Assembly: GCF_003018255.1 (NCBI RefSeq)
Contig: NZ_CP027440.1
DNA: 64,000 nt
DNA from: Escherichia coli
Lineage (GTDB): Bacteria; Pseudomonadota; Gammaproteobacteria; Enterobacterales; Enterobacteriaceae
Reading direction: 5' to 3' (one strand)
Position numbers and translations under genes: made by a program. Position 1 is the first letter of the stretch. Each line of letters begins with the position of its first letter. Below are positions 9,437 through 49,078 of the stretch, piece after piece. A model generated the notes under the pieces. It did no database searches. It had not been told where the DNA came from and worked only from the letters and a program-made list of their open reading frames with translations.

Positions 9437-9575
9437 TATACTTGTCATAATTCAAGTTGCATGTGCTGCATCGATGTTCGCTCACCCAGGTCACTTACTT
9501 ATGTAAGCTTCTGGAAATTCATTATTTGTTCCCTTCCTGCAACTTGACTTATTTAGAGTATATTCATGTATACAC
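9437..9575. repeat. ERIC (IRU) repetitive element
   Basis: Contains cgctcaccc.ggtcacttacttatgtaagct (reverse complement of the ERIC2/ERIC1R primer regions) with inverted termini tgtatac...gtataca; near-identical to the copy at 46501-46630. Confidence 0.8.
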
Positions 9576-10060
9576 ATCGAGATTTCAGCCAGCAGACGCG
9601 CATCTGGCGTGCCGTGGCGGATCTGTAGCGGTTTTTGCAGAGTTTCGGTGAGGCGACGGCAAGCTGCAACGCCGTGGTTAACGACCGGTAAACCGTTCAG
9701 TTTAGAGGTTCCGGCTTCGATGGATTTTTTAATCCCTACAGCCGCTTCTTCGTACCGATTCAGACGGGTATATGCATCGATGGTGCTCGGCAGCAGATCG
9801 CACTCTTCTTGTAGTGTTTTCAGTAGTTCGATGTGTTCGTCCATCAGCGCCACACCTGCGCGCGGTTGGCTAAGGGTTTTACCTTCCTTGTCTGCTTTCA
9901 ACAGCGCAAGAGAGAAGCGTTTATGCTCAGGAATGGTTTGTTGGTATTTAACGCCATCTTCAAAGTTTTCAACATCCTTGCCGGTTTCCCAGGTTTTCAG
10001 TACCTGTTGCCGCTCGGTCATGAATTCGTCATGGGTTAATTTCTTATTTCGAAGTTCCAT
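9491..10060 (-). pseudogene. glmE: glutamate mutase E subunit (methylaspartate mutase epsilon), truncated
   Basis: First about 160 aa ([50 protein letters not shown]) match GlmE/MutE; homology ends near 9580 where the frame runs into the ERIC element and stops; full-length GlmE is about 480 aa. Confidence 0.75.
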
Positions 10061-10078
10061 TGATTGCAGCCTTAATTG

Positions 10079-11467
10079 TTATAGGGTTAAGCATTGAATA
10101 CTGGTGCGCGCGGCGGCCAGCGGATCGACTCTGGCGACGTTTGCCAGCAGTGGTAATAGCCCCCGGGAATCGCGGTAATATTCAAATTCGGTCGGTAAGA
10201 GAATGCGTTTACCGTCGTCGTTTAACTCGCGGTATTTCAACCAGTGATGCATATCGAACTGACTGGCACGCGAGAGCCATCCGCCGGATCCGACGACTTT
10301 ACGCACGGTTGTCAGGTCACGTCCCATCTGTAAATCGACATTGCCGACGCAGGTGCAGACCTCTTTTTTGGTGCCCGCATGTCTTTCGGTGGCATAACCC
10401 ACACACAGTCCGGCCAGGACGGTATCGAAATATTTTTCTTCTGCATTCGCGGGTAAGTAGTCGGGATGAGCGACTAGATGACGGAGGTAATGATAAAAAG
10501 CGTCCAGCTGTGCGGGTTGCTGAGCAAAATTCACATTGACTAACTCTTTCGCACTTTCACCAACCACCATTGCCGAGACGCGCATTCCCAGATCTCCTTC
10601 CACCGTCCGTTTTACGAAGGGTTCCGGTACGCCATGTAAAACAGTGTCGGGCGAGAGCGTGTTGGCACTGGCGGAATAGACATCGGTGGTTGCGCCACCC
10701 ATGTCGATCAGCATGAACTCTTTCCAGCTGTGATCGACATTACTGATTGCCTTAACCAGTTCAAAGACTGTCCACGGTGTCGGCATTGGTTCTTCGCCTG
10801 TTTTATCAACAACGACATCCAGCCCTTTCCCTTTAACGATGCGTTTAAGGAATATGTCGCAGATAGCCTGGCGTGCAGCTAAAGGGTTCGGATGGTCAAG
10901 ATCGGGCAGAACGTTGTCGACGATGGTCAGGTCTTTATGCCCGAGGATCTCCTGCACCTCGTCCTGAATATCCCGGTTTCCGGCATAAATAATGGCGCAG
11001 TCGAGTTTGGATTCTGCCAACACACGGGCGTTATTCAGTCCGTAGCTTTCTTCTCCGCCATCGGTGCCGCCGGTGAACAAGAGAATATCGGGCTGCGTTT
11101 CTTCCAGTGCCTGGATATCACGGCGGTTCAGCTTGTAGGCGTAAGATTGCGCAATTTTAGCACCCGCAGAGTGAGCGGTTACTTTCGCGGTTTCCAGGGT
11201 GATAGAAGGCACCAATCCCATTGCGGCAACCGCCAGCCCACCTTTGGCAGAGGAGGAATACTTCAATGCAACCTCACCACTGTTTAACAGGGGGAGGGCA
11301 TCATCTACGTTTAACACCTGGTCCAGGCTGGAGAAAAACCCCTTCGCCAGATGATGGGTGGTGGTTGGGGTCAGTACGTGGTTAACCAACGTTAACGCGT
11401 CCCCCTCCCGGGCGAAGAGGGCTGCTTTGGTCCACGTCGATCCAATATCGACAGAGACGATTTGCAT
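10079..11467 (-). CDS. glmL: glutamate mutase accessory protein GlmL/MutL (actin/Hsp70-like fold)
   Basis: 462-aa [21 protein letters not shown], between glmS and glmE as in clostridial mut operons; start overlaps glmS stop. Confidence 0.75.
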   Translation of the reverse strand: MQIVSVDIGSTWTKAALFAREGDALTLVNHVLTPTTTHHLAKGFFSSLDQVLNVDDALPLLNSGEVALKYSSSAKGGLAVAAMGLVPSITLETAKVTAHSAGAKIAQSYAYKLNRRDIQALEETQPDILLFTGGTDGGEESYGLNNARVLAESKLDCAIIYAGNRDIQDEVQEILGHKDLTIVDNVLPDLDHPNPLAARQAICDIFLKRIVKGKGLDVVVDKTGEEPMPTPWTVFELVKAISNVDHSWKEFMLIDMGGATTDVYSASANTLSPDTVLHGVPEPFVKRTVEGDLGMRVSAMVVGESAKELVNVNFAQQPAQLDAFYHYLRHLVAHPDYLPANAEEKYFDTVLAGLCVGYATERHAGTKKEVCTCVGNVDLQMGRDLTTVRKVVGSGGWLSRASQFDMHHWLKYRELNDDGKRILLPTEFEYYRDSRGLLPLLANVARVDPLAAARTSIQCLTL

Positions 11468-11916
11468 CAGATTGCCTCTTCAAGAATACGAGTATCAACG
11501 TCATGACGTTGGTTGATATCGTGGGCCATCAGCTGACAAACATCTTCTAAGTCATGACTTGGGGCAAAGACGCGATCAAATCCCATCTCTTTGAATTTGG
11601 TTTCCACGTCAGCGAAGTCATGTTTTCCGACCACCAGGTTACCGCCCACATAGAGCAGGATGTCCCCCAGTCCACGCTCGATGCAGCGTTCGCGCATGCC
11701 CAGACAGTCGATATCGCCATGCCCATAGATAGAGGAGACGACAATCGCGTCAGCACCAGTTTCAATGGCAGCATCAATATATTCGTCCTGGCTGACCATT
11801 ACGCCCAGATTAATAACTCTGAAGTCATGGTTGCTAAAAACGCGGTCCAGAACTTTATTGCCTACTGCATGGCAGTCCGCGCCAATAACGCCAATCACAA
11901 GTGTTGCTTTCTTCAT
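11467..11916 (-). CDS. glmS: glutamate mutase S subunit (B12-binding sigma subunit)
   Basis: 149 aa from [24 protein letters not shown] with DxHxxG cobalamin-binding motif; GGA-type SD upstream of ATG at 11916 (the track ORF extends further 5'). Confidence 0.82.
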
Positions 11917-12463
11917 GGGTAATCCTTTGTAAGACAGAGAGTAAAATAAGTTACACACGTCGTATTTATGGCCGCTCATAACGGCACAGGTTTAATATCA
12001 CAGGAGTGTCTTTATCTGACCGTAATGTTGCAATTGATCTATTTTCAAAATGTCTTTCGGGAAATGATTGTTTAAAGTGTGTTTTCAAATTCTCATGTTA
12101 ATTCAGTGTGTTATGTCAACTAATGTCATGAATGTTAAATTTTTAAAATTAACTTGATTTGATGTATTGAGATAATTGTGATCAACTTCTAATTTGCATT
12201 TTAGTGATATGGGGTTAGCCATGAGTAAATGCATTTCATAAAAGTTAAGTCGAATTTCACTGCAATTCATCTCTGCTTAATGTAAAAATAATGTTGAAAA
12301 TAACAAATAATTAATGATTCATGCGAATTATGACCTTTGTTAGCTCTTTTGATTTTTCGTAAAAAAGAAAAGTACATGAAGGTGCTACCAGTACGAGAAA
12401 CGTTAATCAAAAGTTTTATTACGTCTGGCAATAACGCAGGCCATTTTTCGCGACAGGAGGGAT

Positions 12464-28012: not shown

Positions 28013-28126
28013 GACGAGTCATCCCTTAATTATTCTCACTTAACTTTATGACATCATACTGCTTTTAGAAGGGAAAAATTAAAAGGGAGAGACTCCGCTC
28101 TCCCATTATTGGCTATTTTCGCAGGG

Positions 28127-43755: not shown

Positions 43756-43938
43756 TATTACTCCGGAAAATGGAAGCGACGATTTTGGGTGACTGGCAGT
43801 TAAAAATTTTACCTGCATTTAGCCAACTTAAATTAATGAAAAAATGTTATTAATCGTTGAGCTAAAGTCATTAGAGATGCTTTGCCCTTAATGTAACCAT
43901 ATCGCAATAAGTTATGTTTTTAAATTGAGGGCATTATT

Positions 43939-45066: not shown

Positions 45067-46500
45067 ATGAATAAAAAATCGTTATGGAAGCTAATTCTGA
45101 TATTAGCGATCCCATGTATTATTGGCTTTATGCCAGCTCCGGCAGGATTAAGCGAACTGGCGTGGGTGCTTTTTGGTATTTACCTGGCGGCCATTGTGGG
45201 GCTGGTTATCAAGCCTTTCCCGGAACCTGTCGTACTGTTAATTGCCGTCGCCGCATCGATGGTAGTGGTGGGTAACTTATCAGGTGGGGAATTTAAAACC
45301 ACCGCCGTATTAAGCGGTTACTCTTCCGGTACCACCTGGCTGGTGTTTTCTGCGTTTACTTTAAGCGCCGCGTTTGTAACCACAGGCTTAGGTAAACGTA
45401 TTGCCTATCTGCTGATTGGTAAAATTGGTAGCACTACCCTGGGTCTGGGTTACGTTACGGTATTTCTCGATCTGGTACTGGCTCCGGCAACACCGTCTAA
45501 CACCGCGCGTGCGGGCGGCATCGTGTTACCGATCATCAACAGCGTGGCAGTGGCTTTGGGATCAGAACCGGAAAAAAGTCCGCGTCGTGTTGGACATTAC
45601 CTGATGATGTCCATTTACATGGTCACTAAAACCACCAGCTATATGTTCTTTACCGCAATGGCGGGGAACATTCTGGCGCTGAAAATGATCAACGACATTC
45701 TGCACCTGCAAATTAGCTGGGGTGGATGGGCGCTGGCCGCTGGATTGCCGGGTATCATTATGCTGCTGGTCACCCCGCTGGTGATTTACACCATGTATCC
45801 GCCAGAAATTAAGAAGGTGGATAACAAAACCATCGCCAAAGCGGGCCTTGCCGAACTGGGACCGATGAAAATCCGCGAAAAAATGCTGCTCGGTGTCTTC
45901 GTGCTGGCGCTGCTGGGCTGGATTTTCAGTAAGTCACTGGGGGTTGATGAATCCACCGTGGCAATCGTTGTTATGGCGACTATGCTGCTGCTGGGTATCG
46001 TTACCTGGGAAGACGTGGTTAAAAATAAAGGCGGCTGGAATACCTTAATCTGGTACGGCGGTATTATCGGCTTAAGCTCCTTATTATCGAAAGTTAAATT
46101 CTTTGAATGGTTAGCTGAAGTCTTTAAAAATAACCTGGCATTTGATGGTCACGGTAACGTTGCTTTCTTCGTTATTATTTTCCTCAGCATCATCGTGCGT
46201 TATTTCTTCGCTTCCGGTAGTGCCTATATCGTTGCTATGTTACCTGTATTTGCCATGCTGGCGAACGTCTCCGGCGCACCGTTAATGTTAACCGCGCTGG
46301 CACTGTTGTTCTCTAACTCCTATGGCGGCATGGTTACTCACTATGGCGGCGCGGCAGGTCCGGTCATCTTTGGCGTGGGTTACAACGATATTAAATCCTG
46401 GTGGTTGGTCGGTGCGGTACTGACGATATTAACCTTCCTGGTGCATATCACCCTCGGCGTGTGGTGGTGGAATATGCTGATCGGCTGGAACATGCTGTAA
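45067..46500 (+). CDS. ybhI: DASS-family anion:sodium symporter (di/tricarboxylate transporter)
   Basis: 477-aa polytopic membrane protein. Confidence 0.9.
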   Translation: MNKKSLWKLILILAIPCIIGFMPAPAGLSELAWVLFGIYLAAIVGLVIKPFPEPVVLLIAVAASMVVVGNLSGGEFKTTAVLSGYSSGTTWLVFSAFTLSAAFVTTGLGKRIAYLLIGKIGSTTLGLGYVTVFLDLVLAPATPSNTARAGGIVLPIINSVAVALGSEPEKSPRRVGHYLMMSIYMVTKTTSYMFFTAMAGNILALKMINDILHLQISWGGWALAAGLPGIIMLLVTPLVIYTMYPPEIKKVDNKTIAKAGLAELGPMKIREKMLLGVFVLALLGWIFSKSLGVDESTVAIVVMATMLLLGIVTWEDVVKNKGGWNTLIWYGGIIGLSSLLSKVKFFEWLAEVFKNNLAFDGHGNVAFFVIIFLSIIVRYFFASGSAYIVAMLPVFAMLANVSGAPLMLTALALLFSNSYGGMVTHYGGAAGPVIFGVGYNDIKSWWLVGAVLTILTFLVHITLGVWWWNMLIGWNML

Positions 46501-46630
46501 ATATACTCGTCATACTTCAAGTTGCATGTGCTGCGTCTGCGTTCGCTCACCCCAGTCACTTACTTATGTAAGCTCCTGGGGATTCACTCGCTTGTCGCCT
46601 TCCTGCAACTCGAATTATTTAGAGTATATC
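46501..46630. repeat. ERIC (IRU) repetitive element
   Basis: atatactcgtcat...cgctcaccccagtcacttacttatgtaagctcctggggattcac...gagtatat; palindromic; matches the ERIC1R/ERIC2 primer regions. Confidence 0.85.
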
Positions 46631-46682: not shown

Positions 46683-48943
46683 ATGATCAAGTTATCTGAA
46701 AAAGGCGTGTTTCTCGCCAGCAATAACGAAATAATTGCCGAAGAACATTTCACCGGCGAAATAAAAAAAGAAGAAGCAAAAAAAGGCACTATTGCCTGGT
46801 CTATTCTCTCTTCTCATAATACGTCCGGAAATATGGATAAACTTAAAATTAAGTTTGATTCATTAGCCTCTCACGATATTACCTTTGTTGGTATTGTACA
46901 GACCGCTAAAGCGTCCAGTATGGAACGTTTCCCGCTGCCGTATGTGCTGACCAACTGCCATAACTCACTCTGTGCTGTGGGCGGCACCATTAACGGTGAT
47001 GACCATGTTTTTGGTTTATCGGCGGCCCAGCGTTATGGCGGTATTTTTGTGCCACCGCATATTGCGGTCATCCATCAATATATGCGTGAAATGATGGCGG
47101 CGGCGGCAAAATGATCCTCGGGTCAGACAGCCATACCCGTTACGGTGCGTTAGGGACAATGGCGGTTGGCGAGGGCGGCGGCGAGTTGGTAAAACAGCTG
47201 CTTAATGACACCTGGGATATCGACTATCCGGGCGTGGTTGCGGTGCATCTGACCGGAAAACCTGCGCCGTATGTGGGGCCGCAGGATGTGGCGCTGGCTA
47301 TCATCGGTGCCGTGTTCAAAAACGGTTACGTCAAAAACAAAGTGATGGAGTTCGTAGGTCCCGGTGTTGCAGCGCTCTCTACCGATTTCCGTAACAGCGT
47401 TGACGTGATGACCACTGAAACGACCTGTTTAAGTTCTGTCTGGCAAACCGATGAAGAAGTCCATAACTGGCTGGCGCTGCACGGTCGCGGCCAGGATTAC
47501 TGCCAACTTAACCCTCAACCAATGGCGTACTACGATGGCTGCATCAGCGTTGATTTAAGCGCCATCAAACCAATGATTGCGCTGCCATTCCACCCGAGCA
47601 ACGTGTATGAAATCGACACGCTGAACCAGAACCTGACCGACATTCTGCGTGAGATTGAAATTGAGTCCGAACGCGTGGCGCACGGTAAAGCCAAACTCTC
47701 GCTGCTGGATAAAGTGGAAAATGGTCGCCTGAAAGTGCAGCAGGGGATTATCGCGGGCTGTTCTGGCGGTAACTACGAAAACGTCATCGCGGCGGCGAAT
47801 GCGCTGCGCGGTCAATCCTGCGGCAACGATACCTTCTCATTGGCGGTTTACCCGTCATCACAGCCGGTGTTTATGGATCTCGCCAAAAAAGGTGTGGTAG
47901 CAGATTTGATTGGCGCAGGCGCAATCATCAGAACCGCGTTCTGCGGCCCATGCTTTGGTGCGGGCGATACGCCAATCAACAACGGTTTGAGTATTCGCCA
48001 CACCACGCGTAACTTCCCGAACCGCGAAGGCTCTAAGCCAGCTAATGGGCAGATGTCAGCGGTGGCGTTGATGGACGCTCGTTCTATCGCTGCAACTGCG
48101 GCAAACGGTGGCTATTTAACCTCTGCCAGCGAACTCGATTGCTGGGACAACGTGCCGGAGTACGCCTTCGATGTAACGCCGTATAAAAATCGCGTCTATC
48201 AAGGCTTTGTGAAAGGGGCGACCCAGCAACCGCTGATCTACGGACCGAACATCAAAGACTGGCCGGAATTGGGCGCGCTGACTGACAATATCGTCCTCAA
48301 AGTGTGCTCGAAGATCCTCGACGAAGTCACCACCACCGACGAACTGATTCCTTCCGGTGAAACCTCTTCTTATCGTTCAAATCCGATTGGTCTGGCGGAG
48401 TTTACCCTGTCACGCCGCGATCCCGGTTATGTTGGCAGAAGTAAAGCGACTGCTGAGCTGGAAAATCAGCGTCTGGCGGGGAATGTCAGCGAGCTGACAG
48501 AGGTGTTTGCGCGCATTAAGCAGATTGCTGGTCAGGAGCATATTGATCCGCTGCAAACTGAAATTGGCAGCATGGTCTATGCGGTGAAACCAGGCGATGG
48601 TTCTGCGCGTGAGCAGGCGGCGAGCTGCCAGCGTGTGATTGGCGGTCTGGCGAATATTGCCGAGGAATACGCGACTAAACGCTACCGTTCTAACGTCATC
48701 AACTGGGGGATGTTACCGCTGCAAATGGCGGAAGCACCAACGTTTGAAGTGGGGGATTACATTTACATCCCTGGCATTAAAGCGGCGCTGGATAATCCTG
48801 GAACGACGTTTAAAGGTTATGTGATCCATGAAGATGCACCGGTAACGGAGATTACGCTCTATATGGAAAGTCTGACTGCTGAAGAGCGCGAGATTATCAA
48901 GGCGGGTAGTTTGATTAACTTCAATAAAAACCGTCAGATGTAA
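46683..48943 (+). pseudogene. ybhJ: aconitase-family hydratase YbhJ, interrupted by a frameshift near 47090-47114
   Basis: Two overlapping ORFs in different frames (46683-47114 and 47090/47111-48943); second begins at the aconitase-type motif GSDSHT; span is 2261 bp, not a multiple of 3; shift lies in the atgatggcggcggcggcaaaatg tract. Confidence 0.7.
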
Positions 48944-48957
48944 AAAGCGCCATGTGA

Positions 48958-49078
<121 letters not shown>

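Follow-up and report, generated by a model that had tools for sequence, protein, structure and literature searches.

A lineage-private single-base deletion that probably makes ybhJ a frameshift pseudogene in an Escherichia coli isolate

Within the 64-kb stretch of E. coli DNA analysed here (the window), the aconitase-family gene ybhJ appears as two overlapping reading frames instead of one. The initial annotation left two explanations side by side, either a genuine inactivating or phase-variable mutation or a sequencing error, and the question raised by this locus is which of them applies. That framing proved correct, and the evidence collected below favours a genuine mutation over an error; specifically, it is likely that a real, lineage-private deletion of a single base has turned this copy of ybhJ into a loss-of-function pseudogene.

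Translation of the region gave a first frame running from the ATG at 46683 through ...REMMAAAAK to the TGA at 47112-47114. The second frame extends from 47090, just after a TGA at 47087-47089 that closes it upstream, to 48943, and has its first ATG at 47111; this codon (47111-47113) overlaps the stop of the first frame, so that the two are joined as ATGA. The coordinates originally given for both frames, with GSDSHT in the second, hold on translation, and so does the total span of 2261 bp, which is not divisible by 3. The positions of all these elements, together with those of the private changes described below, are collected in Table 1.

Table 1. Coordinates of the split ybhJ gene and of private changes at the ybh locus in the window.
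Feature	Position	Strand	Details and basis
Private derived substitution A->C in the divergent ybhD/ybhH intergenic (promoter) region	43812		Comparison with relatives; placed from gene coordinates
ybhJ pseudogene, aconitase-family putative hydratase	46683..48943	+	2261 bp here, 2262 bp elsewhere
N-terminal fragment ORF, 143 aa, ending MMAAAAK-TGA and holding the IHQ motif	46683..47114	+	Translation and aconitase alignment
Second private ybhJ change, G->A, Gly79Ser, derived state	46917	+	A in the window, G in relatives
Deletion site, GG here and GGG in close relatives (GCG GGC -> GC GGC)	47099..47100	+	Alignments; gene position 417-419
C-terminal fragment ORF, 610 aa, starting MILGSDSHT, -1 frame	47111..48943	+	Translation

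Megablast searches found ybhJ in 5,416 of 5,426 RefSeq complete E. coli genomes, a set that does not include the source genome of the window. The best matches, at 99.9% identity to the window copy, were genes annotated as ybhJ 'hydratase', each of 2262 bp, and a single annotated ybhJ CDS of 2262 bp and 753 aa is found in MG1655, strain 104, JNE23-011 and JNE112863; the length of about 753 aa given beforehand for K-12 is thus accurate. A two-frame structure in reference ybhJ genes, which had been named as one observation that would overturn the frameshift reading, was seen in none of the orthologues inspected, all of which are single ORFs. The annotation of these orthologues and their Pfam domains also bear out the identity first assigned to the gene. 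In K-12, where ybhJ (b0771) encodes a putative hydratase, the gene is intact, whereas in the window it is one G short and falls into pieces of 143 and 610 aa; the synteny ybhD | ybhH-ybhI-ybhJ | ybhC is the same in both, and the locus is about 97.4% identical at the DNA level. In summary, the relatives carry one ORF, and in the window copy the loss of 1 nt brings a stop at codon 144. Since this split is a deterministic difference from the orthologues, chance is not at issue.

Alignment with the orthologues confirmed that exactly one base is missing at the place first proposed. Close relatives read ATG ATG GCG GGC GGC GGC AAA ATG at the tract, and comparing the reference ATGATGGCGGGCGGCGGCAAAATG with the window ATGATGGC-GGCGGCGGCAAAATG shows that one G has gone from a GGG run. 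The cause suggested at the outset, slippage in a triplet tract, did not survive this comparison. The reference tract is imperfect (GGC-G-GGC-GGC-GGC). What has been lost is the G that interrupts it, part of a 3-base G run, and the perfect (GGC)4 of the window was created by the deletion and is not a pre-existing slippery repeat. In addition, slippage by whole GGC units preserves the frame, so triplet slippage would not cause a frameshift. K-12 has GCA GGC at the site and hence no GGG run, unlike the relatives of the window. The event would then be the removal of a single G from the three-G run at ybhJ codons 139/140, private to the lineage, either through slippage of the polymerase on the G run or through misalignment within the imperfect GGC repeat. 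A further private change lies upstream in the same gene: position 46917 is G in JNE23-011, JNE112863, strain 104, MG1655 and the Logan contig L004, and the A of the window recurs in the Logan contig L003.

The consequences for the protein were assessed on the intact orthologue, which contains Pfam Aconitase (PF00330) at residues 41-470 (E 7.4e-88) and Aconitase_C (PF00694) at residues 638-684 (E 5e-6). The same domains are found in K-12-type intact ybhJ, whose GSDSHT and CGPC motifs align to mitochondrial aconitase, and in the window they are distributed over the two frames. Specifically, alignment of pig mitochondrial aconitase (5acn) with YbhJ pairs IIHQ with IHQ, GTDSHT with GSDSHT, GSCTNS with AGCSGG and CGPCIG with CGPCFG. 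In aconitase, GTDSHT (DSH) is the catalytic motif, and the 4Fe-4S cluster has its three ligands in the cysteines of GSCTNS and CGPCIG. In YbhJ the frame is shifted at residues 139-143, within aconitase domain 1 and directly ahead of GSDSHT. Translation from the normal start would read MMAAAAK and stop at residue 143, before the catalytic GSDSHT, and the remaining 610 codons would lie in the -1 frame. The N-terminal fragment retains only the IHQ motif, with GSDSHT and the cysteine motifs out of frame; the C-terminal fragment holds the catalytic DSH motif and the cysteines aligned with the aconitase cluster ligands. Because the active-site motifs are severed in this way, the gene is regarded as a loss-of-function pseudogene; loss of function is the expected consequence, and YbhJ would be non-functional in this isolate.

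We then considered how far the lesion extends beyond the window. Junction queries of 81 nt, and then of a SNP-free 43 nt, were matched at a threshold of at least 99% identity against the 5,375 complete E. coli genomes that carry the tract. The G-deletion junction was found in none of them, and neither was the junction of a neighbouring AAAA->AAA deletion; wild-type alleles were recovered by the same queries at 97-98%, which provides a built-in control. The check for tract variation in other isolates, suggested in the initial annotation, therefore returned neither the G-run nor the A-run deletion in complete genomes. A G-deletion product without Gly79Ser, which would indicate a second origin, was absent among about 15 billion public proteins. 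Thus the G deletion is a one-off, confined to one lineage.

Among the other candidates carrying the 610-aa fragment, L003 was the only one with the same lesion. L004 has a scaffold N-gap, L007 has an apparent IS-element end next to the tract, L008-L012 are contigs that merely begin at the ATG, and L005 and L006 carry the different A-run deletion. This AAAA->AAA deletion, seen in L005, L006 and L017-L025 (in L019 the adjacent C is lost), yields the same 143 + 610 split. It lies at gene position 426-427 (window equivalent 47107-47111), 10 nt downstream of the G site, and occurs on 17 contigs of several SNP backgrounds, all of them Logan read assemblies and none a complete genome; the contigs are short and often carry further indels. 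As a control, 1-nt deletions were simulated at eight other 3-4-base runs of ybhJ, chosen so that the truncated product is the same on any background, and these products were looked for. Seven of the eight were found in public data, on 1-3 contigs each, so that a frameshift at any short run is background at this scale of data. Recurrence alone is consequently no evidence of a hotspot, as short-homopolymer frameshifts turn up somewhere in public data. With a deletion about 6-8 times commoner than those at the other A4 runs of ybhJ, the A4 site may be mildly enriched, either as a biological hotspot or as a sequence-specific artefact after the GGC repeat.

Could the G simply have been dropped from the consensus of an isolate whose ybhJ is intact? 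The change concerns one base of a short homopolymer that sits in a GC-rich repeat, and the deletion is common to no other genome. GGC-rich tracts are known to provoke sequence-specific Illumina errors, and indels in GGC-rich or homopolymer stretches of ybhJ also occur in other Logan contigs, as scattered deletions of technical appearance (L006, for instance, combines two A-run deletions with zero substitutions). The only other indel of the window is likewise a change in homopolymer length: at 28113-28116, in the zitB-ybgS intergenic region, the window has T4 against T3 in JNE23-011 and JNE112863. Against a sequencing or assembly error, these two genomes, the closest complete ones (about 99.94% identical across the 64 kb, with ybhJ intact), differ from the window by 33-35 genuine substitutions and by these two indels only. 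The window therefore lacks the profile of an indel-ridden assembly, and an error-prone assembly as the default explanation was rejected. A G3 run is also too short for typical homopolymer miscalling, and the private non-synonymous substitution in the same gene is consistent with relaxed constraint. The exact 143-aa product is recorded from just one NCBI contig of 4,892,666 bp, which presumably belongs to the source genome, and the Logan assembly of SRR8931299, an accession that gave no match in the searchable literature. Contig L003 of that assembly matches the window at 100% across 2461 nt, the deletion and Gly79Ser included, and runs uninterrupted from the ERIC-like repeat upstream to the REP elements downstream; an independent pipeline thus arrived at an identical base string, free of breaks and bubbles. 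Logan contigs of unrelated samples end at the same points, which indicates that the breaks are set by the repeats, as an accurate short-read graph would have them. Since the reads of SRR8931299 probably come from the same isolate, a systematic read error or a mutation acquired in laboratory culture could be common to both assemblies. On balance we consider a sequencing error unlikely and the deletion probably real, and we infer that the DNA of the isolate truly carries it.

If the deletion is real, the allele might still be switched or expressed in some other way. Phase variation would make the GGC/G tract a contingency repeat that turns ybhJ ON and OFF by slipped-strand mispairing, and the site does lie in a short tandem GGC repeat adjoining an A4 run, with the A-run deletion on several SNP backgrounds and 17 contigs, against 1-3 for the control runs. 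Contingency loci of Neisseria, Haemophilus and Campylobacter share with ybhJ here a frameshift in a short repeat towards the 5' end of the gene, but they are built of long homopolymers or many non-triplet units with visible length polymorphism. The tract in question is a G3 inside GGC-G-(GGC)3 followed by A4, in other words runs of 3-4 bases without a long mutable tract, and slippage of its GGC units stays in frame. No length polymorphism from G- or A-run deletions was seen in the 5,375 genomes, the G deletion occurs on no other background in the public proteins, and the A-run variants are limited to short Logan contigs, often accompanied by other indels. The phase-variable option raised initially is consequently left with only the slightest chance. 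The related idea that the 20-nt GGCGGGCGGCGGCAAAATG is a mild but genuine hotspot for repeated, perhaps adaptive, shut-off of ybhJ, or that the G-deletion allele is slightly leaky and down-tuned, or both, we hold to be very improbable. Expression of the split gene is likewise very improbable. Termination-reinitiation at the ATGA could yield complementing fragments, since the stop TGA (47112-47114) overlaps the ATG (47111-47113); alternatively, a -1 slip of tRNA-Lys on A_AAA could yield full-length YbhJ with Gly140-142 changed to Ala, as the tRNA can move from AAA at 47109-47111 to AAA at 47108-47110 without loss of pairing, and the ATG is then read in the C-terminal frame. In E. coli, however, Z_ZZ.N tetramers without a stimulator frameshift near background (0.147% vs 0.112%), and among the six motifs responsive to a strong pseudoknot A_AA.A has the lowest rank (PMC4066793). 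The site has the tetramer A_AAA only, with no programmed -1 heptamer X_XXY_YYZ, and the 71 nt downstream of it fold no better than shuffled sequences (z = -0.32), so that no RNA stimulator is apparent there. Moreover, the two-frame arrangement is conserved in none of the inspected orthologues, and the break falls inside aconitase domain 1, away from the boundary between large and small subunits of LeuC/LeuD-type enzymes. Programmed recoding is therefore not supported, with reinitiation or a -1 slip being a formal possibility only.

The preferred reading, a genuine deletion that inactivates ybhJ, fits a gene that has been lost elsewhere. In public E. coli and Shigella data, 34 contigs, one of them a 5.66-Mb chromosome, carry ybhJ with a premature stop after residue 177; a further 38 have a frameshift after residue 512, and on a 4.65-Mb chromosome the gene is disrupted after residue 118. 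The contig L007 (ERR10176609), at its positions 1-53, opens with CACTAAATCAGTAAGTTGGCACCATTACC and abuts ybhJ at the GTG of ...CGTGAGATGATGGCA, a pattern suggesting that in another strain an IS element has inserted just a few bases ahead of this tract. CACTAAATCAGTAAGTTGGCACCATTACC is similar to the terminal inverted repeats of IS1. Like the window allele, these nulls arose through simple lesions in ybhJ, but they lie at other positions and represent other events. Given the recurrent loss of ybhJ in E. coli, neutral or nearly neutral decay is the simplest account of the mutation. Searches of the same kind also returned two E. coli-type ybhJ fragments filed as Xanthomonas citri and Klebsiella pneumoniae, records that are probably due to contamination or mislabelling.

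Our verdict is a commonplace frameshift pseudogene, private to one lineage, in a known gene that E. coli can do without. In practice, ybhJ should be flagged here as a frameshifted pseudogene, rather than annotated as two hypothetical proteins. Beyond annotation its importance is small: it adds one more independent null allele of a gene that E. coli evidently loses without penalty, and it hints, if weakly, that E. coli can dispense with the ybhHIJ pathway under some conditions.

The YbhD-regulated cluster ybhH-ybhI-ybhJ, in which ybhJ comes last, encodes a PrpF-type isomerase, a DASS-type carboxylate transporter and the aconitase-type hydratase. YbhD represses ybhH(I) (PMC9068703). For ybhJ itself, the literature offers regulation by YbhD at the level of the locus only, and the cluster has no known substrate (PMC9068703). 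In the window, ybhD, ybhH and ybhI are identical to the copies of intact relatives and are on this ground considered intact. Leaving aside the first 3 kb of the window, 3 of the 9 differences from JNE23-011 fall in the ybh locus, namely the substitution at 43812, Gly79Ser and the deletion. The locus makes up about 10% of the sequence, and this clustering, which is compatible with relaxed constraint, is not significant (rough binomial P of about 0.05).

The surroundings of ybhJ are rich in repeats. The ybhI-ybhJ spacer holds an ERIC/IRU-like repeat at 46495-46630, and the interval from ybhJ to ybhC has two or three REP (BIME-like) palindromes at 48955-49075, both recognised by resemblance to the consensus. 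Because these repeats flank ybhJ, Logan contigs of many samples begin or end at the same positions. Further downstream, strain 104 carries an integrase and an excisionase of a prophage directly past ybhC (L001 6821-8087, compared with the window from 50430 onward); in the window and its nearest relatives ybhC leads straight to ybhB-bioA, and the integration site used in strain 104 is unoccupied.

Two regions elsewhere in the window deserve mention. At 230-2895, across sucC-sucD-mngR, 26 of the 33 substitutions relative to the nearest complete relatives are packed into 2.7 kb, and by this pattern the segment looks like an imported recombination tract. In addition, between mngB and cydA, at about 9575-11920 (from L013 9715-12056), the window contains an accessory methylaspartate mutase cluster together with an RtcB-family gene; the cluster comprises glmS, glmL and a truncated subunit E that is annotated as a pseudogene in the relatives.
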